DNA of 64,000 bases, taken from the UHGV virus genome UHGV-0178594; one strand, 5' to 3'. A program made the position numbers and the translations under genes. The notes below the pieces were generated by a model. The model did not search any database, was not told the DNA's origin, and saw only the letters and a program-made list of their open reading frames with translations. Of the stretch, positions 5,850 through 51,526 are shown in pieces. This stretch comes from a virus. Position 1 is the first letter of the stretch; the number at the start of each line of letters is the position of its first letter.

Positions 5850-6171
5850 TTTCTATCTCCGGTGCCGAGCCAGCGTAATCGCGAATCTTGTTTCTTAGCC
5901 ATGCTGCGTCAGGAAGAGTTAACGTTGTCCCTACCGGCATTTCTTCCATTTCTGACTCATGGCCCACCAGCACGCGAAATACCCAGCGCAAATCAGCGTT
6001 GCCATAGGCGCGATAGGCCGCCAGGTCTGAGCGATAAACCTCATCAATTTTTATCGTGTACTGGAAATTATCGGAGTGATACTCCGATACCCGCTTGATC
6101 ATCTCCTGATGGAATAGTGCGCGCAGCACATCGTCTTCAATGCATCGATCGTCGAGCCTGCTGTAACTCAT
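5842..6171 (-). CDS. hypothetical protein
   Basis: 109-aa ORF overlapping start of downstream SWIM gene by 8 nt (translational coupling). Confidence 0.45.
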   Translation of the reverse strand: MSYSRLDDRCIEDDVLRALFHQEMIKRVSEYHSDNFQYTIKIDEVYRSDLAAYRAYGNADLRWVFRVLVGHESEMEEMPVGTTLTLPDAAWLRNKIRDYAGSAPEIENA

Positions 6172-6502
6172 AACAGTTCCTCACAGTCATAACCTGGGGG
6201 GAACTGTATGCAGGGTGTGAAATGCGAGAAACAGACAGGCCACCAGTTCAGGGGGATGTGGTTCATAAATCCCCTCACTGGTGACAAGTGACTTTCATTA
6301 ATCTTTATGCGGGGGCCAGCTTCATTGTTTGCTGGCTGTAGATTAAAAATTAAATAGTGTGAATGACATGGACGTTATTCTCGAATTGTTAAAGCTAATT
6401 GTTCTGTTTATGAACGCCTCGTTGACCACGCAAATACTGGCGTTAGTATTTTTGTTACTCTTCTACCTGGTATTAAGGGAGTTAACAAAGCTACTGAGTT
6501 GA

Positions 6503-7156
6503 TTAAAGTATCACCGTATCTTCATCAATTACTTGCCCGGCCAGCGATTTTGGTTGGGTATTTCCTGCTTTAGCTTTTTGATCGCTGATAATGGACAGGA
6601 ACGAGGCCATTATCCCTGCTTTGTTTTCTTTCTCTACCGCTCCTGTCATTTGTTTCAGGTAATCCGCGCTGGCAACATTATGGTATACCGTTGCATAGCA
6701 GCACAGAATCATCAGGATGTGCTCTGGTCGGATATCTTGCCAGTTAACTCGATAAACCTCTTCACCGTTGCCGTTGTATTCGGTATCGACGATAGAGTCG
6801 GGGATCTCAAATGCCCCTTTGTTCTTGTCAGGCAGGGATAGCAGCCTTTGTAGTTTCAGCTCCCGGTATCTCTCCATGCCGACAATGATCGCTGCTCTGC
6901 CGTCGGCGTGCCGTGTTTTTAATGTTACCTGGCTGGCACCTGTACCGGCTGAAATGGTTGGCGTGATTTCGTCAACCAGCACCTTAAATTCACTTTTACG
7001 CAGCTCGGCAATTGCTGGTGGAATTTTTCGTTTTTGTTCAATAGCAGATGCAGGGAGCGGCTTTACTTTGTCAATTACAAGCGCGCCGTCTTTCAGGACT
7101 GCCGTAGCCATCAGCGGCTTGTTAGTAGAAAGACTGAATATTGCGATCTTTTGCAT
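6503..7156 (-). CDS. hypothetical protein
   Basis: 217-aa ORF; hairpin with U-run (minus-strand reading) at ~7178-7205. Confidence 0.5.
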   Translation of the reverse strand: MQKIAIFSLSTNKPLMATAVLKDGALVIDKVKPLPASAIEQKRKIPPAIAELRKSEFKVLVDEITPTISAGTGASQVTLKTRHADGRAAIIVGMERYRELKLQRLLSLPDKNKGAFEIPDSIVDTEYNGNGEEVYRVNWQDIRPEHILMILCCYATVYHNVASADYLKQMTGAVEKENKAGIMASFLSIISDQKAKAGNTQPKSLAGQVIDEDTVIL

Positions 7157-7421
7157 GGCTTTTACTCCACGATAGCAGGCACAAAAAAAGGCCGCACATG
7201 GCGGCCTGCTTTGGCGTTATGACTCCCTACCGCGCATCGGCTGAAAGTTAGTCGTCAAAAGAACCTTCAACGGGAGCCGTTTGCGCAATGGATTTTGTCC
7301 AGATTGTGATTTCCAGAATAGTGTCAACAATTTTTTTGAATTTTTTATTCGCGCTGAATTTGGCCTAGGTCATTTTGGCGTAGATGTTTGCTTTTGTAAC
7401 ATAAAACTTCAGTTTTTTTAC

Positions 7422-8045
7422 ATGAAGGATGGTTTTGTGAAGTTAAGGGTTTTGGGAGCAGTGCTCGCGGTTATATTGGGGGGAGTTTCTCTTAATGCTG
7501 CCTATGCAGGCGCATTACCTGCAAAGTATGAGGCTGGGCTGAAGGTGTTGCGAAACGCCAAAACAAACTATACGCCTGATGAAGTTTCAAACTATTGCCA
7601 AAAAGAAAATATCCCACTGAAACCTGTAGAGCCATTCTTTAAAAGCAACATTGAGTTCTGTGTATTTGCGTATGCAGCAGATGAAACAGGAAAGGCCATA
7701 CAAAAGACAGGGTATTCCACCAAAGACACAATGTCGGTGTTAAGTAACGGCGTGTTGCAGTTTGAGCTTTATCGTCAGCAAGGAATGGGAGATCTATTGC
7801 AGCCTTTGTATGGTCTAGCATTGGTGCCGGAAGGTCAGCAGTTTCTGATCAAAAAAGGCCTCATGAGGCAGGAAGATGTAGCTGGTTTCGATGCCATCGT
7901 TGCCTATGAAAAACAACTCAAGGAACAGCGCAATAAAAAACCATCTGCCTCATGCGTGCAAAGCAAAACAGCAGAATACAGCGCAGTGGCTGGGCCTTTA
8001 GCCCCACAAATGGCAGAGCAATGGTGTAAACAATACGGGCAATAA
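7422..8045 (+). CDS. secreted protein (signal peptide)
   Basis: Start at internal ATG giving MKDGFVKLRVLGAVLAVILGGVSLNAAYA signal-like N-terminus. Confidence 0.5.
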   Translation: MKDGFVKLRVLGAVLAVILGGVSLNAAYAGALPAKYEAGLKVLRNAKTNYTPDEVSNYCQKENIPLKPVEPFFKSNIEFCVFAYAADETGKAIQKTGYSTKDTMSVLSNGVLQFELYRQQGMGDLLQPLYGLALVPEGQQFLIKKGLMRQEDVAGFDAIVAYEKQLKEQRNKKPSASCVQSKTAEYSAVAGPLAPQMAEQWCKQYGQ

Positions 8046-8065
8046 GTTACGCAGCGGAGGCAGAA

Positions 8066-8458
8066 TTGAAAAGATTAGCTATTGCTTTATTGGCAGCTTT
8101 CCCTTTGATCGCTCACGCCGGGAATTTACAAGTGAAGTGCGGTAGGTTTGATATAAAAATCTATCCGAACGCCATATTTCTGAATGGGAATAAGGTCGAT
8201 AACGCGCACCGGAAAACTGAATCTGACGTAATGAGCTATGTGTTCCAGGAGTATGCCGAGATGGGGGGAACTTACACGTTGTACTCGCTGGATGTTCCTT
8301 CTCGCGGTGATATGACGTTATCTCATCAATGGCAGAACGCCGATGGCGAAGCTCTGCGCGAGGTTAAAACAGAAAAATGTGGCACTTTCCATTCTTTTAA
8401 AGGGAAAGCGCCCAATGTTAAATCTACGCTTGAAAAACAGCGTGCTGGTGAGCTTTAA
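8066..8458 (+). CDS. small secreted protein (signal peptide)
   Basis: MKRLAIALLAAFPLIAHA signal-like N-terminus; 130 aa. Confidence 0.5.
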   Translation: MKRLAIALLAAFPLIAHAGNLQVKCGRFDIKIYPNAIFLNGNKVDNAHRKTESDVMSYVFQEYAEMGGTYTLYSLDVPSRGDMTLSHQWQNADGEALREVKTEKCGTFHSFKGKAPNVKSTLEKQRAGEL

Positions 8459-9973: not shown

Positions 9974-10785
9974 ATTGGCAGCCTCCTTTGACTAAGTTAA
10001 GGAGCTACCGCGTGAGGTTCCAATCTCAATGGCGGTAGCACTGACTGGGTTGGAACTACCGGCGTCAAAGGGAACCGGCCTGCCTTTCGGCAGCCCAGCC
10101 AGCACTACCATTGATCTCTGAGCTAAACGCTAAGTATGGCTGTGCGATGGCATGACACAAAAAAAGACGCGTTCGGCGTCTGTGTCGCCTTTGACATTAT
10201 CCGGGGTTCCAATCCCGGCACCCGTTTTTCTAAGGTGCCGTAGAAATATACCCCACGATAATGCCAGGGCGCAACTGTGTGTTTTCTTATGCTTTTCTTT
10301 TCTTCTTTTGGGCTTGCTTGCAGGCGTAGGCCATTGCTTTAGCTTTCACTTCATCCAGCTTTCCGGTGATCACTTCTTTTCCGAGAGTGACAAACCAGTC
10401 ATAGCAACCGCCAGTGATGTTCTGGATTTGAAAGTTGAGGTAGCGAACGGTCATTTTGACACCCCCAGCGCGAGTAAAGAATGCAGATTATCGCGTGAGT
10501 GGCGGACAACGAGTGATGGGAAAAGACAGTAGCTGTTCATAGTGTAGTGACTCCTTGCTTTCGGAGCCGCCATCGACTGTTCCACGGTCTGGTGGCGGCG
10601 CAATAAAGGTTGGAACACCGTGAGTCAACGGGGGCTTTTCAGCCACCTATATTGCACCGCCATTGGTATGGCGGCGGCAATCATACGAAAAACCAAACGG
10701 TTTGTCTCAAAAAGTTGACCGGTGTACCAATCGGTTGTGAATGTACAACGGCGAATCTCACAATTCAACTTAAAATGTTAGAAAA

Positions 10786-11361
10786 TTAATTTATCAATTC
10801 AGTCACCATCTGATACAACGTCATTTCATCAGCATTGTGCCGCCTGAAATCTGCTTTGCCGCCTATTTTTCCATCAGCATGAACAGGAACCAACCAGGGG
10901 TATTGCTCGCGGATCTCTGCTGGCGCTGCGTGTTGATGGTGCCATTTACACAAAGGGAGGACGTATTTATGCGCGTTCTCTGCTGTTCTCCCGAAGATGT
11001 GGTGCAGGGATACCACAGGGCTATGCTGTCCGTGCATATGGCAGGCAATGCAGGGGAGAGCACCGATGGCAGTTTGTATCCGGCGCTCATCTGCTGTGAG
11101 TGTTCTGCCTTTCAGGCCGCGTGACGCGCGAGTTTTTTTGACAGGAGCAGAAGCGGCCTTCTCTTTTCTTCGCTGTTCATATTGCTTCGCTTTTTCAATT
11201 TTCTTTTGCCGATATTCAGGCGATGCGGCTTTTTCTCGCGCACGCTGCTGCTGGCGTTGAGCTTGCTGAAGACGCTTTGCCCTTTGTTCCTCCCGCCATT
11301 TCGGATCAGCCAGTTTTTGCAGGGCTTTTTGTGTCTGTTTCTCCCAATAGCTTTGCTTCAT
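10786..11361 (-). CDS. Ref-like HNH endonuclease (recombination enhancement function)
   Basis: Cys/His cluster LPCIACHMHGQH...LPLCKWHHQH; ORF track begins at TTG 11403, ATG at 11361 preferred; 34-bp palindrome immediately upstream. Confidence 0.55.
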   Translation of the reverse strand: MKQSYWEKQTQKALQKLADPKWREEQRAKRLQQAQRQQQRAREKAASPEYRQKKIEKAKQYEQRRKEKAASAPVKKTRASRGLKGRTLTADERRIQTAIGALPCIACHMHGQHSPVVSLHHIFGRTAENAHKYVLPLCKWHHQHAAPAEIREQYPWLVPVHADGKIGGKADFRRHNADEMTLYQMVTELIN

Positions 11362-11404
11362 AGAAATACCCGGTTTGTCTACATCGCCGCTATGGTTGAT
11401 CAAA

Positions 11405-11438
11405 TGTGTTAGAAAATCAAAATTGATTTTCTAACACA
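11405..11438. promoter_or_regulatory. 34-bp perfect palindrome, bipartite operator candidate (GTTAGAA-N14-TTCTAAC)
   Basis: TGTGTTAGAAAATCAA-AA-TTGATTTTCTAACACA in divergent promoter region between Ref-like gene and rightward early operon. Confidence 0.6.
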
Positions 11439-16324: not shown

Positions 16325-16356
16325 GTGTTAGAATATTGATTTTAATTTTCTAACAT
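16325..16356. promoter_or_regulatory. palindromic operator candidate (GTTAGAA-N14-TTCTAAC)
   Basis: GTGTTAGAATATTGATTTTAATTTTCTAACAT between phosphatase gene and 16398 ORF. Confidence 0.5.
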
Positions 16357-29617: not shown

Positions 29618-29689
29618 AGTACCCTCCGCAATAGGCGAGGGTACTTTACATTAAAATGCACTGTCTAAAAAGATTGTTAGAAAATTAAT

Positions 29690-30718
29690 TTATGAATCCA
29701 TCAGGCGACTATTTGCACCAACGGATGCCCCGCTACGGCGCAAATATCGCATAAGTGTTTCGGGCTTTTTCCATGTGCCTTCCTGCATGATCTCGACCAT
29801 TGACACCTGTTTCTCAGCCATATCAATTGCCGCACCAACACGCGCACTATGGCCTGTCCACGTCCGGTATCTTCCTTTGTTCGGCGTGGCATCTCGTTTG
29901 TTCAGCAACCCCCAGGCATCGCTGAATATTTTCTCCATTGCAGGTGCAGTAAGGGGAGTTGTCGTGATTCTGGCCTTATTACTGCGGTGTATTGGCGGGA
30001 ATAGCACCGCGTCCGGATGTTGACGAAGTCCGGACACCTCCAGCCAGTCGTTCAGTACGGCGGTAGTGCAACGAGAAAGCACCTTATCAAGTCCGGCGGC
30101 GGTCGTGATGGTCTTCGTGTGCGAAATATGCAGCGTTACAGTGTCACCTGTTTGGTCCAGATCTCCGACGCGGATGCGCGAGATTTCTGACATACGCATC
30201 AGGGTATTGTATGCCACGAAGAGAAACGCCCGATTGCGCAGGTCCACCAGCCGCTCGGAACGGGACAGCAATACGTCGAGCAATTTCAGATCATCCCACC
30301 GCAACGGTATAGCCTGGCCTGTTCGCTCGCCTTTTTCCGTTGCCGCTTCGCGCCGGATGCGCCGCATGGCCAGAGACACACTTTTATCGTCCGACAGCGG
30401 CGGGAGGCCACATTGCGAAAGCAGCATGTTAAGCATGGCATAGTGCTTATCAATGGTGGTCGAAGCCAGATCGGCCTCATGCAACTGGAGAAGATACTCG
30501 CGGGCCATTTCCGACGTAATCGGGAACCAGGGGCGCTGGCGCGAGTTACACCACCGCGCCCAGGAATGAAACACCAGACGGAGATCACGAAGTGTATTTG
30601 GGGCATAAGCTCCCTGGTCGTTCATGAACTGCATAAAGTTTTTTGCAGCTTCCTGGTATTCGGTGCCAATATCGCGCAGAAAACCACCAGAACCGCCGGA
30701 GATAACTAGTTCACCCAT
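29690..30718 (-). CDS. Cre-like tyrosine site-specific recombinase
   Basis: Extended similarity to P1 Cre (WFP...YLL.L...SLAMRRIRRE...RNRAFLFVAYNTLMR, SGHSARVGAA.DMA); 342 aa. Confidence 0.8.
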   Translation of the reverse strand: MGELVISGGSGGFLRDIGTEYQEAAKNFMQFMNDQGAYAPNTLRDLRLVFHSWARWCNSRQRPWFPITSEMAREYLLQLHEADLASTTIDKHYAMLNMLLSQCGLPPLSDDKSVSLAMRRIRREAATEKGERTGQAIPLRWDDLKLLDVLLSRSERLVDLRNRAFLFVAYNTLMRMSEISRIRVGDLDQTGDTVTLHISHTKTITTAAGLDKVLSRCTTAVLNDWLEVSGLRQHPDAVLFPPIHRSNKARITTTPLTAPAMEKIFSDAWGLLNKRDATPNKGRYRTWTGHSARVGAAIDMAEKQVSMVEIMQEGTWKKPETLMRYLRRSGASVGANSRLMDS

Positions 30719-30902: not shown

Positions 30903-31098
30903 GAAATCGGAACTTTTTTCCCAAAAAAACACCGACCAGATCACTTCGCAAATCCGTCAGCCATGCGGTAGCCGCTCCTGGTTACATTTTCTAATAGGAA
31001 CAATCAAAAAAAAGCGGTTTTATCCTTTACTCACCTTGTTATTCAGCATAAATTTGTCACAGGACTTTTATGTTAGAAAACTAAATCGAGTAGGAATA

Positions 31099-32136
31099 AT
31101 GAGTAAGAAGTCGATCGAGAATGAGTACAAACGGTTCCTGCAAACCGCTGAACGGTGGAAAGAGCTGGTGGTCGCAAACTCTGTTTTCCATGATACCAGT
31201 TATGTTGGCGAGGAATTTCGCCATGTTGCATTAACACATGATCCGGCTGTATTAGAAGAAGCTGAAAAATGCATAGCCGAATGGAAAGCCTTTGTTGATC
31301 TGTGTCGCAAGGATGATGACAAAGCCTCAAACATTGTTGAGTCGGTTTATTTACCGATCCCATTCATTGTTGAGGATACTAATCAGAGTACGCACATCGT
31401 TATGCAAAGCGCAACCACAACGAGAACATTTACGCGCGAAGACCTGCTGAAAAAATACGATAAAACTATAAAGAAAAGCATGAAAAACAGGATATTTTCA
31501 CAGGTTGTCGGTGCGCTTGAAGAAGAACGCAGATTCTTCGCCGCTGAACGTGAGGGCGAGGTATACCGCGCAAGAAAAGAAGGTTATACCGATGTGGTGA
31601 TTACCACCAATATTGAGGGCAACAATGGACTTTCACGCTTCAGAGTGGGTACGCACGGTGCGCTGATCTTTGCAAAAAAAGCAAACACAGAGATTCCCGT
31701 TGTTAACAACGTTGGTGAGCGCCGCACCCTTACCATTTACACTGGCATTAAACCGCTTCCGTGCGGACTTCTCGGCGAATTTGACCTTTATCGGGTTCGT
31801 GATCTGGAAAAGCAGCAGCCAAGCTACGTCGTGAAGTCATATATCCTGAGAAACATTGATATCCGCAATCAGAGTTTAAAAAACAAATCAGATAAAATGC
31901 TGGCCGAAGCCGATCCAGCCATACACCAGATCGTAAGCCGGAAAATTCAAGAGGCTAAAGATGCAATGGCAAGGCTGGATAAAATGGACCTGGAACTACT
32001 GGAAGTTATGATTGCCTCCGGCGATGACCTGACAGGCATCCGCCTTACTGAAGCCAGGAAAAAATACGGTAAAAGCGTTGAAGAACGCTATGGGTACACA
32101 TTCACACAAACGATGTACGCGGCAAAACTCTGGTAA
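31099..32136 (+). CDS. hypothetical protein; positional analogue of P1 c1 (between pacB and lox)
   Basis: 346-aa ORF convergent with pacB-like gene; GTTAGAA half-site in its leader; no recognisable motif. Confidence 0.4.
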   Translation: MSKKSIENEYKRFLQTAERWKELVVANSVFHDTSYVGEEFRHVALTHDPAVLEEAEKCIAEWKAFVDLCRKDDDKASNIVESVYLPIPFIVEDTNQSTHIVMQSATTTRTFTREDLLKKYDKTIKKSMKNRIFSQVVGALEEERRFFAAEREGEVYRARKEGYTDVVITTNIEGNNGLSRFRVGTHGALIFAKKANTEIPVVNNVGERRTLTIYTGIKPLPCGLLGEFDLYRVRDLEKQQPSYVVKSYILRNIDIRNQSLKNKSDKMLAEADPAIHQIVSRKIQEAKDAMARLDKMDLELLEVMIASGDDLTGIRLTEARKKYGKSVEERYGYTFTQTMYAAKLW

Positions 32137-36950: not shown

Positions 36951-37026
36951 TGGTGGCCCCTACCGGACTTGAACCGGTGACCGTGCGATTATGAGTCGCC
37001 CGCTCTAACCACTGAGCTAAAGGGCC
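36951..37026 (-). tRNA. tRNA, anticodon CAU (tRNA-Ile2/ileX-like or Met)
   Basis: 76 nt, GGCCCTTTAGCTCAGTGGTTAGAGC...CTCATAA...GGTTCAAGTCC...CCA; close to E. coli tRNA-Ile(LAU). Confidence 0.8.
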
Positions 37027-37455
37027 AGATTACTGTTAATTACGCTTACGCTTTTTGCCAGAACCGCGTAAGGCTTTTGCCGCTTGCTCTACCCCGTATG
37101 CAACCACCAGCAGAAACAATAATGTCCACTCCGGGTTTTTATCGGCAAACGCCCAAAAATCCATCACTTGCAGCCACCTTTTAAGACAAAACGCCATTGC
37201 TGTTAGGTTGCGGTGCCGGGTGCCTCCCGGTGACGTTAACCAGTTAACAATTAACGCCGGATCACTTATGGATTCTCGTTACGCCAGTAAAAAGACCACC
37301 TTTACTGTTTTAACTGTTCCGCGTGCGCTTAGCCGCATTCACCGCAATGGTAAGAGCATTTGGCTGACTGGGCGGCGATGACGCCTGTACGCATTTGGTG
37401 ATCCGGTTCTGCTTCCGGCATTCGCTTAATTAGCCAAATACTCTTAACGTTGCGC

Positions 37456-37542
37456 TGGCGGAGAGTAATGGAATCGAACCATCATCGCTTGCGCAATGGG
37501 ACGGTTTTCAAGACCGCTTGAGCACCATGCTCCCTACTCTCC
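37456..37542 (-). tRNA. type II tRNA, anticodon UGA (Ser candidate), atypical D-arm
   Basis: 87 nt; acceptor GGAGAGT/ACTCTCC, loop CTTGAAA, long variable arm, T-loop TTCGATT, encoded CCA. Confidence 0.5.
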
Positions 37543-37647
37543 AGTGATTGTGATGGTCGGTGCTGAACTCCGACACAGGGTTGTAGCAAGCCCCGCAAAG
37601 CGCGCACTACTGTAGTTGCGGCACATCAGCCTGTGCATTCATCACAA

Positions 37648-37725
37648 CGGTAAGGGTACTTCGTAGGGATTCGAACCCTCTGCCAAGCTCGGCGATCTCC
37701 GACGTCGCAAAATACCCTTACCTGT
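37648..37725 (-). other. tRNA-like fragment / degenerate tRNA
   Basis: Contains GGGTTCGAATCCC T-arm inside an 8-bp closing helix but no canonical D or anticodon arm. Confidence 0.3.
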
Positions 37726-37730
37726 TGTGT

Positions 37731-37806
37731 TGGTGCCGGTTAACGGACTCGAACCGCTGACATCCTGCTTACAAGGCAGGCGCTCTACCAACTGAGCTAA
37801 ACCGGC
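37731..37806 (-). tRNA. tRNA-Thr (anticodon UGU)
   Basis: GCCGGTTTAGCTCAGTTGGTAGAGC...CTTGTAA...GGTTCGAGTCC...AACCGGCACCA. Confidence 0.8.
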
Positions 37807-37810
37807 AATT

Positions 37811-37897
37811 TGGTGGGGAGTGATGGAGTCGAACCATCCGAGTCGCAATGACAGTAGATTTACAGTCTACCCCGCTACCCCTACGGACTAACTCCCC
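37811..37897 (-). tRNA. tRNA-Tyr (anticodon GUA), type II
   Basis: 87 nt; anticodon loop CTGTAAA, long variable arm, T-loop TTCGACT, CCA end. Confidence 0.75.
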
Positions 37898-37902
37898 TAA
37901 AT

Positions 37903-37979
37903 TGGCGATGGTGGGTGGATTCGAACCACCGACCGACAGCTTAGAAGGCTGCTGCTCTATCCTACTGAGCTACACCATC
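37903..37979 (-). tRNA. tRNA-Arg (anticodon UCU)
   Basis: GATGGTGTAGCTCAGTAGGATAGAGC...CTTCTAA...GGTTCGAATCC...CACCATCGCCA. Confidence 0.75.
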
Positions 37980-38440
37980 ACTTGCCGGGTACGTCTCCGG
38001 CGAGGGCTTCCACCTCCGTATGCTTTTCGGCGCACCGCGCCCTGGCTGCAATTCGGTAACAGGGGATGCATAACCCTGGCTTCCAGCGTGATTAGCGCCT
38101 TCAGCATGACGGGATATACCCGTTACAAGACATTATCCCAGAAAGCCATTAACCAATGGCTGTTACGCGGGAGGGACGTAACAGGTAAGGGCGCTGACCA
38201 GAAAGACCTGACCCTTCTCATTCATCTGGTTAATCACACCAGCGCCCTTGCCTGTTATGCCTCCCCGTTCCCTAATACACAGACGGGGACACTCTGCGGT
38301 CGATTTTTTGACGGGGGACGACTCATACCCCGTGGCGTCAGGCTTCTTAGGCCGCTACCATCATCAGATCATCGTTTGCATTTACTTTAATGGTCGGGTT
38401 CTAAACCGCCGCAAAGTCGCTAACCATGACGAAAACACTG

Positions 38441-38464
38441 AAAAAACACCCACCCGAAGGTGGG
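38441..38464 (-). terminator. rho-independent terminator (minus-strand reading)
   Basis: cccacc-cgaa-ggtggg hairpin with A6 on plus side (U6 after hairpin in minus transcript). Confidence 0.55.
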
Positions 38465-39290
38465 CAAATATCCCACTCGCGGTATTGCCACTTAGGCGTA
38501 TGGTCAACCTGGCAACTCGGTGTCCTCAACGGGGAAGGAATAACCCCGCCATACTTACCGCCGCGCCTGTCGCGGTTATCGCTACGTATCAACATAAAAG
38601 CCGACTGCCTGAGCAAGATTCACTTTCAAAGGCCCGCAGAAAGGAATCCATAGTCGGCTTTTATCTTGAAGCGGCTCTCTCTCCGCCCGTCACCGTCCTA
38701 TCCCGGTTGTCGCGTTTGCCACGCCAGCCGTAACGAGGTTTAAAGTCTTTTCACGTTTTCATCACTCGACTGCCGTCTATGGCTGTTCGTTGCAGCGGGG
38801 GTGCCTCCCCCTGGGAATATCCCCGGCCTTACCCCATTCTTTCAAGACACAATGCAAGGCCACATCCGCATAGGTGCATTACCGCAACGTTAAGGAGACT
38901 CAGAGTCAGCAAAATAAGAGGAAAACCCAACTCTGCGCCTCCTTAACGTTGAGGATGTGCACTGATGATGACCCGATGCAGCCTGGCCCACTTAACATAC
39001 TCACTGCCAGATCATCATCAATGAACACCATAAAAAGACCTTCCGTGGCTCAAGTCACTGTCGTTTACTCCGTAAAATGCTCTCGCTGAAACCACTTTAC
39101 GCACTAAACCTGCCGGGCATGTATTTGCACGGTGCCGGAGCTTTCCCTTACCTTAAAATTTACTTTCTAACACTTAAAATTGTTTGATGCTGGTGGGGAA
39201 AGACAATGAAGTGACTATCAAACCCGCAAGCGACATGGGAAGCTCCCCACCAGCACGAAAAATTCTATGTTAAGTTAACTACATAATCAA

Positions 39291-39323
39291 TATGTTAGAA
39301 AAACAATTTTAATTTTCTAACAC
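39291..39323. promoter_or_regulatory. palindromic operator candidate (GTTAGAA-N14-TTCTAAC)
   Basis: ATGTTAGAAAAACAATTTTAATTTTCTAACACA, 4 bp from stop of 39325 ORF. Confidence 0.5.
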
Positions 39324-39324
39324 A

Positions 39325-40533
39325 TTATTTCCCGTAAAGATTTTCAACTCCACCGTTCTTCTTATCCCACTCGTTCGCCCATACCCGGCAAGCATCAATT
39401 ATTTCCTGACGGCGATCGCCCTGCATGAACGGAATGCTTTCATGAAAGCTGCTTGGAATGCAGGCCACACTGAACACTGTATCAAACTCAGTCTGCTTGA
39501 TTGCCTCCAACGTCTCTGGACGCATTTTCAATTCGTCGATCGGTGCATCCTTAGAGTCCATAATCCGGCGATGCAAGCGTGGAAAATCCGTTTCAAGGTA
39601 CGCCATAATTTTATCTGCCAGACATTCGTCTATGTCGGTATTCCAGTCAGTTTCGAAGCCAGGAATTCGGTAGTAAAGCGGCGTTCCCCATACTGACGGG
39701 ATCACATCCATCGTCAGCAGGCGGCTGGTTCTGATTTGCTGATGGTAATTTGCCGTCAGCAACGCTTCGCCACGTTGCCCAGTCTCCGCGACCAGACCAT
39801 GCGGAAACTCATGGATATAGGCAATAGCTTCTCTTCCGTCATACATTAGCGGGAATGTCTCTGGCCTTTGCCCCATGCCACAGGCGCGATTCAGATCATG
39901 ACCAAGCTCTGAGCACTCTCGTTTCAATGTTTCAATAATGCTCTGCGCCGCTGCTAACTTTTTACGCAGTGTGACGAGTTCGCCTTGATACTCAACGCAT
40001 TGCTGATTTAGCTTGGTTAAACGCTCTTTTAGTTCCCGACGCTCTCTTTTCAGCGTGCGGTTATCTTTCTCCGCAACATCCAGTCGTTTTGTCAGGCTTG
40101 GCGGATAGTCTTTTTTGTAACGACTCAAATCGACTTCAGCAGATTTGCGCAGTGTATTTGCCTGCTCAAGACGCGCCTCCAGATTGCCGATCTCATTACG
40201 CATATTCGCGGCAAATTGATTAACTGCATCCCCCAGGCTTTCAACTGTCGCTGATACACCAGTGACTTGAGAAAAACGGATCAAGCCATCATTAACGGCT
40301 TGCTGATATTCCTCAAACTGATCCACCAGCTTATTGTAATCAACTGCCCCATCATCAAGGAGCTGGTTGATTTCCGCCACCAGGTTATCTGTAGTGGCAA
40401 TGACGCTCTCATGCAGTCGCTTTGACAGGTCATCGCCCGGATTTCGTTTCTGTATAAGCGCGATTTGTGTCCGCAGCGTTTCAATTGCGGTTGAGATGAT
40501 CTCCAGGCTTGATGATTCTACTTGCTGACTCAT
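39325..40533 (-). CDS. coiled-coil protein with C-terminal globular domain
   Basis: 402 aa; N-terminal ~200 aa heptad-rich; flanked by GTTAGAA palindromic sites and terminator 40606-40631. Confidence 0.5.
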   Translation of the reverse strand: MSQQVESSSLEIISTAIETLRTQIALIQKRNPGDDLSKRLHESVIATTDNLVAEINQLLDDGAVDYNKLVDQFEEYQQAVNDGLIRFSQVTGVSATVESLGDAVNQFAANMRNEIGNLEARLEQANTLRKSAEVDLSRYKKDYPPSLTKRLDVAEKDNRTLKRERRELKERLTKLNQQCVEYQGELVTLRKKLAAAQSIIETLKRECSELGHDLNRACGMGQRPETFPLMYDGREAIAYIHEFPHGLVAETGQRGEALLTANYHQQIRTSRLLTMDVIPSVWGTPLYYRIPGFETDWNTDIDECLADKIMAYLETDFPRLHRRIMDSKDAPIDELKMRPETLEAIKQTEFDTVFSVACIPSSFHESIPFMQGDRRQEIIDACRVWANEWDKKNGGVENLYGK

Positions 40534-40605
40534 GTTTGTTCCCTTTCTTGAAATTAGTTTTCTAACATATTTTATTAGTATGCAATTTCAATAAAAAGAC
40601 TCAGG

Positions 40606-40631
40606 CAACAAAAAACCCGCCAACTGGCGGG
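40606..40631 (-). terminator. rho-independent terminator (minus-strand reading)
   Basis: cccgcc-aact-ggcggg hairpin adjacent to A-run on plus strand. Confidence 0.6.
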
Positions 40632-40642
40632 TTTATGACCGT

Positions 40643-40969
40643 TTAGACGTGTTGGAGTAGCATGTATGCCATATAAATCAAAGCTATCAGTACGACAACT
40701 ACCTCTGAAATTCTAAACGCGCGCTTTACTATCTGCCGCTCACCGTGGGGTATACCATCCGAGTATTCCTGATCCGTCATTTTCCCCAGCCAGCTTACCG
40801 ATAACAGAGCTGCATTCTCACTCATATCAAGTTCACTTACGGCCTCTCGTATAAGTGGCGCGGTTACTTTCCTGGAAGCAACTTTCATGGTTATGCTTCT
40901 GGTTCTTCCGGCGTCATCAGCAAACGTCAGATTTACGTGGTGTTTTCTGCTCAATGAACAAACTCCCAA
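40643..40969 (-). CDS. tail-anchored membrane protein
   Basis: 108 aa with single C-terminal hydrophobic helix VVVVLIALIYMAYMLL. Confidence 0.45.
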   Translation of the reverse strand: MGVCSLSRKHHVNLTFADDAGRTRSITMKVASRKVTAPLIREAVSELDMSENAALLSVSWLGKMTDQEYSDGIPHGERQIVKRAFRISEVVVVLIALIYMAYMLLQHV

Positions 40970-41151
40970 TCATTGGCTTTCGCGCTTTCCGGGGTAATGC
41001 ATACCTTGTCGCCGGTAACTATGTTTCGGGCTTCTAATGCCCCATCATCCATCTTTTTAAGCTCTATACAGAAAGAATGAGGCCATGAGCAGCGACGAGC
41101 AACAACGTTAGCACCGGCAGGGATAAGTTCAGCCACGTTAAGTAAACGCAA
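40951..41151 (-). CDS. hypothetical small protein
   Basis: 66-aa ORF overlapping downstream start. Confidence 0.35.
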   Translation of the reverse strand: MRLLNVAELIPAGANVVARRCSWPHSFCIELKKMDDGALEARNIVTGDKVCITPESAKANDWEFVH

Positions 41152-41165
41152 AACGATTTCTCCGT

Positions 41166-41609
41166 TTAATCAAGATTTACATATTCCGTGATAGCTTTTA
41201 TGGCTTCATCGGCACTGCGCGCCTCAAAGCAGTAATAGCCTGCTTCCGTGAGGCGAGTCATCCAGACGAGCTGTTCGGGAGTCAGACGGTTTCTCCCGTG
41301 CTTCATCTCAATGCGCATTCCGTGATACCCACCACGAGCAAGGTCAATAGAAAGGTCCGGATAGCCCTTCTTCTGACCTTCTGCCACCATCTTAATGGCT
41401 GTCCTTTTGCCTCTCAGGCCGCCGTTCGGTGTTGAGTGTGTGTGCTCATACACGTATCGCATGTTGCGATACAGCCAATCCAGAACGCGAACCTGTTCGT
41501 AATGTTCGTAATTCCGTTTTAATAAGTCAGGATTTCTTTCTAACTCTCTCAGTGCAGCAGCGTGCGGGGATATTTCAGAATACGCACTATGATGCCTGCG
41601 TCTTCGCAT
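41166..41609 (-). CDS. VRR-NUC domain nuclease
   Basis: PD-(D/E)xK-type motif GYPDLSIDL...GMRIEMKHG; ATG directly abuts a GTTAGAA half-site. Confidence 0.55.
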   Translation of the reverse strand: MRRRRHHSAYSEISPHAAALRELERNPDLLKRNYEHYEQVRVLDWLYRNMRYVYEHTHSTPNGGLRGKRTAIKMVAEGQKKGYPDLSIDLARGGYHGMRIEMKHGRNRLTPEQLVWMTRLTEAGYYCFEARSADEAIKAITEYVNLD

Positions 41610-41798
41610 CAAATTTCTAACACAAACTTCCTGAAATCATGAACACGATAATAACAAGAGCGTTAGTTTTATCAAAACCGAGGGGAATACTACTGAAGAG
41701 ATAGGCGGATGCAACAGGTCGGACTTGTTTTTAGAGTAAATGGTGATGCGGGTCAACAAGCCGGGTAAATTGTATGTCATTTACCCAACTTGTTATTT

Positions 41799-51494: not shown

Positions 51495-51526
51495 TGATTA
51501 GAAACATCAATTTAATTTTCTAACAT
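51495..51526. promoter_or_regulatory. palindromic operator candidate (ATTAGAA-N14-TTCTAAC)
   Basis: Between RepL-like gene and icd-ant module. Confidence 0.5.

Follow-up and report, generated by a model that had tools for sequence, protein, structure and literature searches.

The 64,000-nucleotide stretch of UHGV virus genome UHGV-0178594 analysed here (the window) carries a pmgM–pmgR–pmgS block that, judged from its sequence, is very probably ordinary conserved backbone of a D6-like phage-plasmid of the P1 family, silenced, like its P1 counterpart, by the prophage repressor and organised as two early minus-strand units followed by the head of a third. The block is a standard, previously annotated portion of the P1/D6 phage-plasmid backbone, and the record of phage D6 labels these genes as similar to P1 pmgS, pmgR and pmgM. 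The window was 100% identical to E. coli plasmid NZ_LR890273.1, fell in a sublineage of seven plasmids at ≥99% identity, and was colinear across its entire length with phage D6 (MF356679) at 84% nucleotide identity. A first-pass annotation had described four ORFs as we found them, all on the minus strand, and had taken the gene for the 402-aa protein for an insertion and the module for defence or anti-defence cargo. The insertion did not hold up: the block was present in 113 D6-like plasmid records compared with 120 carrying the portal gene, and its GC content (0.43–0.50, against 0.46–0.52 for darB and its upstream edge) showed no sharp anomaly. Distant P1-like elements (contigs L008 and L010) also keep the block beside darB–ulx, in the order darB–ulx–orf86-like–...–pmgM–(variable ORF)–pmgR–pmgS–...–lpa, with PmgS there just 24–31% identical. 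Sequence searches returned homologues of P1 genes, the result that the annotation had itself named as contradicting its reading: identity to the P1 proteins was 56% for PmgM (E 1e-47), 28% over 65 aa for PmgR (E 9e-8) and 22% for PmgS (BLASTP, residues 2–395 against 7–415, E 2e-13). We also considered orf86 and orf66 as counterparts of P1 pmgL or pmgN and rejected this, as no similarity was detected. From the directly observed homology, synteny, motif enrichment, site positions and conservation, and domain content, we infer repressor binding, promoter activity and biochemical roles for the whole block.

The regulatory part of this picture depends on the heptamer GTTAGAA, of which the window has 21 copies where 6.5 ± 2.8 are expected; none of 100 shuffles reached this count. 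Within the module it lies at 39165, 40560, 41538 and 41615 and, as an inverted pair, at 39294/39315. It forms the core of a longer motif, GTGTTAGAAAATTAATTT, of about 18 bp, which can also be delimited as a 17-bp asymmetric form with an AT-rich tail. A weight matrix made from 14 sites, with D6 left out of its construction, found 16 sites in the window compared with 0.7 in shuffles, and 15 sites at homologous places in D6, where the sites were kept while the flanking bases had diverged. Core-bearing sites in the module lie at 41604–41623, 40549–40568, 39292–39323 and 39154–39173; the copy at 41538, inside the nuclease gene and without the extended motif, is probably due to chance. Further sites stand immediately 5′ of c1 (31070), lpa (35512/35524), ref (11406/11418, bivalent), icd-ant (51507) and repL (52714, oriented opposite to the gene). 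In the P1 record, C1 operators are annotated for c1, lpa, the ban/tRNA leader (bivalent), 26/pmgL, ppp and pmgR/pmgS, the last with the remark that it "controls expression of pmgR and pmgS". Enrichment, positions parallel to those in P1 and conservation in D6 thus support the earlier suggestion that GTTAGAA sites are repressor operators, and we regard the motif as the core of a predicted D6-type prophage repressor operator occupying, in the records examined, the places of P1 C1 operators at c1, lpa and the pmgM, pmgR/pmgS and tRNA/ban-leader regions.

An asymmetric operator of about 17 bp, enriched, occurring singly or as overlapping inverted pairs, and located where early genes and the repressor gene have their promoters, corresponds to a P1-type circuit. 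Its recognition sequence is not that of P1: the P1-type operator ATTGCTCTAATAAATTT had no match in the window with up to three mismatches allowed, and in place of a P1-like C1 the window encodes a repressor 80% identical to D6 C1, for which tblastn gave no match to P1 C1 and, within the phage collection, a match to D6 alone. The immunity logic is shared with P1; the specificity is different. The older D6 immC record holds no operator features, and a text search for the motif in the accessible literature returned nothing relevant. In the proposed mechanism, the D6-type "C1" repressor of the lysogen (345 aa, ~31099–32136) would silence the units by binding the ~18-bp operators, which lie at sigma-70-type promoters or a short way downstream. 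Once the repressor is inactivated, PpmgM would transcribe pmgM–orf66–pmgR as far as a terminator at 40613–40634, PpmgS would transcribe pmgS only, and the promoter beside the bivalent operator would transcribe a structured leader and five tRNAs.

We think it quite unlikely that the motif is instead another cis element, for instance a component of a phage-specific promoter or a site for some other regulator. Such an element would fit the overlap of the GTTAGAA core at pmgS with a −10-like hexamer, TATGTTAGAA, and the orientation of most single sites toward the downstream gene; however, the repL site runs opposite to repL, and several sites have a separate promoter-like hexamer pair upstream of them. 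The sites also mirror the P1 C1 map, down to the bivalent arrangement at ref and the tRNA/ban leader and to the site before the repressor gene, and their 17-bp asymmetric, AT-rich-tailed form is similar to the P1 operator. A P1-type late (Lpa) promoter pattern derived from LP26, LPpmgL and LPpac, of which LPpmgL is the late promoter serving the block in P1, gave 6 matches against 5.2 expected.

Under the prophage-repressor reading, the first unit begins with a putative sigma-70-like promoter on the minus strand at 41648–41675 (TTGATA-16-TATTAT with a TG extension, 10 of 12 matches); D6 retains its −10 region, TGTTATTAT, in otherwise diverging surroundings. A single predicted D6-type operator (41604–41623, minus strand, matrix score 20.2) lies between this promoter and the pmgM start codon, and its core, GTGTTAGAAA, is likewise conserved in D6 amid diverged flanks. 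The pmgM homologue itself (41166–41609, minus strand) can be read as 148 aa from a TTG (41166–41612) or from the ATG at 41609; since the operator overlaps the start codon and a clear ribosome-binding site is lacking, the start or the regulation of pmgM may differ from this description. The assignment to the VRR-NUC nucleases made in the first-pass annotation was borne out: the 148-aa protein scored 26.2 bits against Pfam VRR_NUC (gathering score 23.8), and the PD-(D/E)XK motif E39...D86...E102-x-K104 is readable in its sequence. Its closest solved relative is psNUC (PDB 4QBL; E 1e-16 across residues 39–147), with D86, E102 and K104 aligned to "ypDl...riEiK" of 4QBL. psNUC is a dimeric junction-resolving enzyme, and the stand-alone group to which it belongs (psNUC, stNUC, saNUC) consists of homodimers that cleave four-way junctions symmetrically (PMC4103454). 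PmgM is probably a Holliday-junction or branched-DNA resolvase, and as a dimer it would most likely remove branches from phage DNA that is replicating or recombining, ahead of headful packaging.

Downstream of pmgM lies orf66 (66 aa, 40951–41151, minus strand), which matched phrog_7206, of unknown function, and is confined to D6-like elements; a homologue search returned 66-aa proteins alone, at 68–98% identity, and P1 has no counterpart. What lies between pmgM and pmgR varies, and contigs L008 and L009 have in this slot a protein whose domain is Tad2-like (anti-Thoeris; E 1.8e-6). This shared slot in L008, together with a common RRxxW...DWE pattern, had prompted the candidate that orf66 is a miniature Tad2-like (DUF2829) protein, which we rejected: orf66 and five homologues had no Pfam match even at E 10, a profile search of the PDB found no Tad2 chain, and hhalign against the L008 protein gave a probability of 0.7%. 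A protein search for further Tad2-like relatives returned none. The two proteins have only the genomic slot in common.

The unit continues with the pmgR homologue (40643–40969, minus strand), identified through P1 PmgR and PHROG matches (phrog_9115 at 5e-50, phrog_3177 at 6.8e-10) and by synteny with P1 pmgR, immediately upstream of pmgS. Its 108-aa ORF encodes a protein of 103–108 aa depending on the start, which is likely a TTG (40954) that overlaps the stop codon upstream. The protein carries an added C-terminal transmembrane helix, a hydrophobic 19-mer with a mean Kyte–Doolittle value of 2.42 from residue 87, so that the membrane protein of the first-pass annotation stands; this tail is present in the window, D6 and L008 and absent from P1. 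P1 pmgR is essential for making virions, and its knockout gives tails and incomplete heads (PMC9024508). As similarity is modest and P1 has no membrane anchor, the role of PmgR may not equal that in P1, and the extra helix could mean a modified role. The unit is closed by an intrinsic terminator (minus strand, 40634–40613; a 9-bp stem with 6 G-C pairs followed by a T-run) with a local fold of about −18.6 kcal/mol, conserved in D6 with a changed loop; the terminator noted in the first-pass annotation is therefore real.

The second unit consists of pmgS, for which a sigma-70-like promoter is predicted on the minus strand at 40564–40591 (TTGAAA-16-TATGTT). A single operator (40549–40568, minus strand) overlaps its −10 element, with a matrix score of 27.9, and its positional counterpart in D6 reaches 28.3. 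D6 matches the window at 100% over the −10 region and the operator, but the −35 region is not conserved. Because this promoter-like site lies under its own operator and the terminator lies just upstream, the 402-aa gene looks separately transcribed and repressor-controlled, in line with the independent regulation claimed before. The same annotation had seen operators bracketing the gene, but those on the 3′ side do not bracket it; they precede the next minus-strand unit, which consists of a leader and five tRNA genes. The protein encoded by the pmgS homologue (39325–40533, minus strand) starts with a coiled coil, continues with a conserved beta-rich middle domain and ends in an (HhH)2 domain. 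Its similarity to P1 PmgS and its family is full-length and colinear, with phrog_1660 (P1 gp093; 86 representatives, mostly 360–470 aa) matched at E 3.8e-143 over residues 1–401. The gene lies directly downstream of a pmgR homologue in P1, D6 and L008; in L010 just a 57-aa membrane ORF precedes it. An AlphaFold model built from 53 sequences (pLDDT 85.6) replaced one built from 10 close sequences (pLDDT 63.8). The best-conserved part of the protein is the C-terminal half with the (HhH)2 nucleic-acid-binding fold, which resembles the RNA-polymerase alpha-CTD and the RAD51 N-terminal domain; fold searches with the beta-rich middle domain gave no structural match.

This DNA-binding-like domain argues against the annotation "prohead scaffold" in the D6 GenBank record, which is matched by the PHROG label "head morphogenesis" and which we hold to be very improbable. 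A long alpha-helical coiled coil is common in scaffolding proteins, and a separate scaffold was not identified in P1 (PMC9024508), yet deletion and knockdown of P1 pmgS are viable (PMC9024508, PMC10695390) and the P1 authors propose the N-terminal part of the capsid protein as scaffold (PMC9024508). Apart from its helical character, PmgS lacks the marks of a scaffold, which would belong to the head module, be expressed late and be needed for heads: the protease and portal genes are ~12 kb away and the capsid gene is elsewhere, and the predicted promoter of pmgS is sigma-70-type and operator-overlapped, not late. In two Vibrio phages, the PmgS-like gene lies among early and DNA-metabolism genes (DNA methyltransferase, anti-repressor, YfdP/YfdQ-like), not head genes. 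The label is probably wrong, and PmgS would rather be a coiled-coil, probably dimeric protein that binds DNA through its C-terminal (HhH)2 domain, a dispensable accessory early protein.

Downstream of pmgS, the next minus-strand operon is headed by a bivalent (inverted-pair) operator at 39292–39323 (scores 26.8 and 28.8), beside a putative sigma-70-like promoter (39262–39290, minus strand, TTGATT-17-TAGAAT). A long leader hairpin follows (39190–39256, minus strand, −30.2 kcal/mol), in which D6 has compensatory changes (GGGGA/TCCCC to GGGCG/CGCCC) that preserve it, and then a single operator (39154–39173, minus strand, score 25.6) with a weaker copy at the homologous D6 position. The tRNA genes of the operon (Arg, Tyr, Thr, Ser and Met; 36951–37979, minus strand) were identified with ARAGORN and Rfam. 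Directly 5′ of them, the leader carries a highly conserved noncoding RNA (37975–38470, minus strand; 97% identical to D6 and ~90% to P1) with a tmRNA-like 10-codon tag frame (38379–38347). This widely conserved, unannotated tmRNA-like tag-template RNA is a separate observation. ARAGORN found no tmRNA in any copy of the leader RNA. In a 65-sequence MAFFT alignment the flanks could not be aligned and the helices were out of register, so that RNAalifold predicted almost no structure and column-based pair counts were unreliable; a per-sequence hairpin search replaced these counts.

The defence or anti-defence cargo proposed in the first-pass annotation was not confirmed, and we consider it distinctly unlikely that the nuclease, membrane and coiled-coil proteins act jointly, as helpers of the adjacent DarB/Ulx anti-restriction system, against rival phages or the immunity of the host. 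The block always adjoins darB–ulx, distant relatives included, the variable slot holds the Tad2-like protein in L008/L009, and T6SS toxins also contain VRR-Nuc domains (PMC9635880). However, orf66 has no detectable relation to Tad2, the closest solved relative of PmgM is a junction resolvase, and the genes are backbone by their record counts rather than variable cargo. The PADLOC check suggested earlier matched no defence-system profile: PADLOC-DB 2.0 gave only coiled-coil noise between PmgS and JetC/LmuB (14–22 bits) and nothing for PmgM, PmgR or orf66, and NCBIfam gave SMC/Rad50 coiled-coil matches alone, far under the cut-offs. Dispensability for plaques, as seen for P1 pmgS and pmgM, would suit accessory genes, but these deletions are among 24 P1 knockouts without a plaquing defect in which antirestriction was also unchanged (PMC9024508, PMC10695390), and P1 pmgR is needed for virion formation (PMC9024508). 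It is also rather unlikely, in our estimate, that PmgS and its conserved neighbours, which always occur next to darB–ulx, form an early host-takeover or anti-defence set, in which dimeric PmgS with two alpha-CTD-like domains would bind AT-rich DNA or decoy alpha-CTD-binding host factors at the onset of lytic growth; an absent plaque phenotype in laboratory K-12 hosts is compatible with this.

Taking the block as repressor-silenced backbone, the main value of the finding is that a false lead is removed, with no new defence island. Annotators of the many D6-like E. coli and Salmonella plasmids gain a working operator motif of the D6-type repressor and a regulon map. As by-products, PmgS emerges as a likely early protein that binds DNA and bears an alpha-CTD-like (HhH)2 domain, and PmgM has a specific candidate role as junction resolvase. 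The tag-template RNA of the neighbouring operon is potentially far more interesting than the module.

Among known systems, the block corresponds to the P1 pmgL–pmgM ... pmgR–pmgS region with operators O26 (Op82), Oppp (Op83) and OpmgRa/b (Op86a,b). Homologous PmgM, PmgR and PmgS occur in the same relative order, prophage-repressor operators (here predicted) lie at sigma-70-type promoters, and the bivalent operator heading the tRNA operon next door corresponds in position to the bivalent P1 operator Obanab, with which the tRNA/ban operon begins. The operator sequences are unrelated, however, the repressors showed no similarity by tblastn, and P1 has pmgN, pmgO, pmgP, ppp and pmgQ between pmgM and pmgR, where the window has just the 66-aa ORF. 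In P1, pmgR and pmgS are contiguous and the block adjoins tail genes, whereas in the window the two genes are parted by terminator, promoter and operator, PmgR bears a membrane helix, and the block adjoins darB–ulx. Like psNUC, PmgM is a one-domain PD-(D/E)XK nuclease of ~145 aa that keeps the catalytic D...ExK, but its N-terminal 38 residues are lineage-specific, and its activity, dimeric state and substrate are predicted. Unlike the (HhH)2 domains of alpha-CTD and RAD51/RadA, that of PmgS is joined to a 215-residue coiled coil and the unmatched beta-rich domain, and in the D6-type sequence its second hairpin has departed from the GIG consensus. The window differs from D6 in its tRNA set, in the absence of tciA/tciB and at the start of pmgM, which is annotated upstream of the operator in D6 and is unusable in the window because of an in-frame stop codon. 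Otherwise D6 orf9–orf12 are orthologous to the genes described here, with PmgS 94% identical and the same operators and terminator.

The four open reading frames (ORFs) named in the first-pass annotation were all present on the minus strand, and its account of the genes, the terminator, and the GTTAGAA sites was confirmed. The 148-aa protein (41166–41612; TTG start, with ATG at 41609 as the second codon) passed the VRR_NUC Pfam threshold (26.2 vs. 23.8 bits), the 108-aa protein (40643–40969) ended in a strongly hydrophobic 19-mer, and the 402-aa protein (39325–40533) gave Pfam matches of the coiled-coil type only. The fourth ORF, orf66, encodes 66 aa (40951–41151), and an intrinsic terminator (40634–40613, minus strand) separates the 108-aa and 402-aa genes.

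This module is already-annotated backbone of the P1/D6 phage lineage. The 2.6-kb region matched the 92.8-kb E. coli plasmid NZ_LR890273.1 at 100% identity and phage D6, a P1-like plasmid prophage that is colinear with the whole window (from ~64.8 kb, through its origin, to ~32 kb), at 84%. The D6 record describes orf9 as a "putative prohead scaffolding protein, similar to P1 pmgS," orf10 as "similar to pmgR," orf11 as hypothetical, and orf12 as "similar to pmgM," followed by orf13, ulx, and darB. The 148-aa protein matched P1 PmgM (56% identity, E = 1e-47), the 108-aa protein matched P1 PmgR (28% over 65 residues, E = 9e-8), and the 402-aa protein matched P1 PmgS colinearly from end to end (22%, E = 2e-13); PHROG profiles were consistent with these assignments. 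No counterpart of orf66, or of orf86, the small gene between ulx and pmgM, was found in the corresponding P1 region.

The block had been read as an independently regulated insertion, which the distribution data contradicted. Among PLSDB plasmids, 113 carried the module and 120 the portal gene of the same element, and GC content stayed between 0.43 and 0.50 across the block with no sharp anomaly. Gene order also matched in two far more distant groups of P1-like contigs, L008/L009 and L010–L012, whose PmgS proteins were 31% and 24% identical, respectively. In both groups, darB (~2,290 aa), ulx, an 84-aa orf86-like gene, and small ORFs precede pmgM; next come a single variable ORF and a gene for a small membrane protein, which in L008 is a PmgR homologue, and then pmgS, with lpa a short way beyond. 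Nearly equal prevalence, even GC content, and shared distant gene order thus indicate that the block is an old, syntenic part of the phage lineage.

The probable pmgR start is a TTG at 40954, overlapping the orf66 stop codon (TTGA), with GGGAG eight bases upstream. The pmgM start region (41604–41650) corresponds to D6 11373–11412, where the D6 record begins a 165-aa product at a TTG that precedes the operator. In the window, a stop codon closes the frame from that TTG, so any pmgM start common to both must be further downstream. The operator overlaps the window's ATG, for which no clear Shine-Dalgarno sequence is evident. Just past the orf86 stop codon, an 8-bp inverted repeat (GGGTAAAT...ATTTACCC, 41763–41786) is kept in D6 with a changed loop, and may act as a weak or bidirectional terminator between the darB-ulx-orf86 unit and pmgM.

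The regulatory half of the earlier interpretation, by which the GTTAGAA sites are repressor operators, was supported. The window contains 21 copies of GTTAGAA against 6.5 expected, a threefold over-representation, and none of 100 shuffles reached 21. Aligned copies yielded a longer motif, GTGTTAGAAAATTAATTT, occurring singly or as overlapping inverted pairs. A weight matrix built from 14 window sites, with D6 left out of the building, matched 16 sites in the window (0.7 in shuffles) and 15 in D6, the latter at positions homologous to those of the window. By the D6 gene table, the site at 31070 immediately precedes the repressor gene c1, a pair (35512/35524) precedes lpa, another pair (11406/11418) separates ref from its divergent neighbour, and the sites at 51507 and 52714 precede icd-ant and repL, respectively; four more are those of the module. 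The C1 operators annotated in the P1 record are Oc1a–e at c1, Olpa at lpa, the bivalent Obanab at the ban/tRNA operon, O26 at 26/pmgL, Oppp at ppp, and, at pmgR, one described as "OpmgRa... controls expression of pmgR and pmgS." The enriched motif stands at the places of P1 C1 operators. P1 has operators at ref, c4-icd-ant, and kilA-repL as well.

The P1 operator sequence itself gave no match in the window with up to three mismatches allowed. The window's 345-aa repressor was 80% identical to D6 C1, and tblastn found no P1 sequence matching it. The best reading is a P1-like regulatory logic run by a repressor/operator pair of different specificity, in which we infer that the repressor binds these sites. 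Strong operator copies were also found between ppp and a pdcB-like gene (bivalent, 16325–16356), downstream of ref (single, 10775–10794), and next to a cre-like recombinase gene (single, 29674–29693), and these are predicted to widen the D6-type repressor regulon.

Within the module, promoters were predicted by consensus scans and conservation relative to D6, all on the minus strand. The putative pmgM promoter (TTGATA-16-TGnTATTAT, 41675–41648) is followed by an operator reaching the pmgM start codon (41623–41604), then by pmgM-orf66-pmgR, with the terminator as the end of the unit; the −10 element and operator core are kept in D6, and the bases between them have diverged. At the predicted pmgS promoter (TTGAAA-16-TATGTT, 40591–40564), the operator (40568–40549) overlaps the −10 element and pmgS comes next; ACTAATAAAATATGTTAGAAAACTAATTT is identical in D6 and the −35 hexamer differs.

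A third unit begins directly past the pmgS stop codon with a bivalent operator (39323–39292), followed by a candidate promoter (TTGATT-17-TAGAAT, 39290–39262), a 67-nt hairpin (39190–39256, −30.2 kcal/mol as RNA), and a further operator (39173–39154). The next ~1.2 kb past 39154 hold no ORF and lead to tRNA-Arg, Tyr, Thr, Ser, and Met, with the whole unit on the minus strand. This unit is the counterpart of the Obanab-controlled operon of P1 (dicF-like region, trnA, trnT, and so on), so the sites 3′ of the coiled-coil gene belong to the next operon. The sites said to bracket that gene are present, but the 3′ ones head the tRNA operon. Pairing in the 67-nt hairpin is preserved in D6 through a double compensatory change (from GGGGA/TCCCC to GGGCG/CGCCC), and P1 likewise has a hairpin between OpmgRa and OpmgRb.

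The tRNA content of this operon varies: Arg, Tyr, Thr, Ser, and Met in the window (36951–37979), Asn, Thr, Ser, and Met in D6 (6084–7850), and Asn, Thr, and Met (annotated as Ile2-CAT) in P1. The D6 tRNAs are on the plus strand in the record and on the minus strand by ARAGORN, co-oriented with the operon, and ~630 bp of D6 carrying tciA/tciB are missing from the window. Between tRNA-Ser and tRNA-Met, a sub-threshold Rfam match to the STnc100 sRNA was detected (37209–37346, minus strand; 40.8 bits vs. 47, E = 2e-6). The leader of the equivalent P1 operon carries an annotated "dicF-like region."

The closest solved relative of PmgM was psNUC (4QBL; E = 1e-16 over residues 39–147), and the catalytic D...ExK motif aligned at D86, E102, and K104; PHROG 5702, "Holliday junction resolvase," also matched (1e-35). 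Bacterial and viral VRR-Nuc proteins of the stand-alone type form dimers and cleave four-way junctions symmetrically, and a part in the recombination, replication, or packaging of phages has been suggested for them (PMC4103454). P1 can form plaques without pmgM (PMC9024508, PMC10695390). We infer that PmgM would be a debranching nuclease acting ahead of headful packaging. A C-terminal membrane helix is present in PmgR of the D6 type (window 40643–40969; D6 10407–10706) and of L008 (4607–4870), whereas the 72-aa P1 PmgR lacks it; PmgR with this helix could plausibly be a membrane-anchored assembly factor. In L010, the gene before pmgS is only a 57-aa, mostly hydrophobic ORF with two hydrophobic stretches as judged by eye.

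A search of 1.84 billion proteins gave 86 PmgS family representatives at E ≤ 1e-3, which makes this a small family; conservation is much higher in the C-terminal half than in the coiled coil. Positions 333–390 of a 53-sequence profile matched two (HhH)2 domains, the N-terminal one of RAD51 (1B22, 3e-6) and the RNA polymerase alpha-CTD (1DOQ, 4e-6), and single-sequence Pfam searches gave HHH_5 in 6 and RNA_pol_A_CTD in 5 of the 53. A confident AlphaFold model from this alignment (pLDDT 85.6) comprised four long helices (4–217), a beta-rich domain (226–285) without matches in fold searches, and a helical C-terminal region. Two Vibrio phages encode the homologue amid early genes, beside a DNA methyltransferase and YfdP/YfdQ-like genes, and P1 remains viable upon pmgS deletion and knockdown (PMC9024508, PMC10695390). 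Together with the operator-controlled promoter, the profile, model, phage context, and P1 viability argue that PmgS is a DNA-binding early protein. The prohead scaffold annotated in D6 is argued against by the C-terminal (HhH)2, the early-gene context, P1 viability, and that same promoter.

The module had also been proposed to be defence or anti-defence cargo. In favour of this reading, the anti-restriction genes darB-ulx are its constant neighbours, pmgS and pmgM are dispensable in P1, and the slot between pmgM and pmgR is variable. However, PADLOC returned only 14–22-bit coiled-coil matches on the module, and P1 knockouts without a plaquing defect, including pmgS, pmgM, and pmgL, left antirestriction activity unchanged (PMC9024508). 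Inserted defence cargo was therefore not supported, and we regard a defensive role of the module as quite improbable. The slot holds a 167–182-aa protein with a Tad2-like (anti-Thoeris) domain in L008 (4081–4584) and L009 (4036–4584) (Pfam E = 1.8e-6), an unrelated 130-aa ORF in L010, and orf66 in the window, and may be a cargo place for small counter-defence genes. For orf66 itself, Pfam, a PDB profile search, and hhalign detected no similarity to Tad2.

Beside the module, in the operon controlled by the 39154–39323 operators, lies a conserved noncoding RNA-like element of ~500 nt that directly precedes the first tRNA (38470–37975, minus strand). It was 97% identical to D6 (7846–8339) and ~90% to P1 (NC_005856, ~68,856–69,353), lying in P1 between the "dicF-like region" and trnA with no annotation; identity among the flanking proteins is only 22–56%. 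The 2-nt and 4-nt indels speak against protein coding, and a hairpin kept with different sequences (GCCATT/AATGGC vs. GTGCT/AGCAC) argues for RNA structure. Copies of its 5′ ~180 nt, 70–85% identical, occurred in intergenic DNA of unrelated virulent phages, frequently close to tRNA genes, and 99 phage records matched in total; Ackermannviridae, Schitoviridae, Drexlerviridae, Akiravirus, and an Aeromonas phage are represented. At least 120 IMG/VR contigs contain the exact pattern ACCANNAANRTAAATGCAAACGA.

Each of the 127 copies examined has UAAAU, followed by GCA and a frame that runs for exactly ten codons and ends in a stop (38379–38347 in the window, minus strand). Past the stop codon, a hairpin occurs in at least five fully complementary versions, and the pseudoknot stem after it is likewise kept by compensatory changes. 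The best Rfam matches of the copies were to tmRNA_permuted (24–33 bits, below the threshold of 47), and ARAGORN found no tRNA-like domain in any copy. An exhaustive tmRNA survey of 2014 listed, among phages, only mycobacteriophages and Bacillus phage G, and the leader element is absent from it (PMC4131195). Neither the element nor its tag peptides occurred in the searchable literature. While the module itself is of low interest, the leader RNA beside it merits its own follow-up. Judged from its sequence, the ten-codon frame has the pattern of a tmRNA tag template: all four synonymous Ala codons occur at codon 10, and the 18 peptide variants (e.g., ANDDLMMVAA, ANDDVVLMAA, ANDEQFLAVA, ANEEMYLAVA, and ANDNEFKVAA) follow AN[D/E]x....A, the tag of E. 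coli tmRNA being ANDENYALAA.
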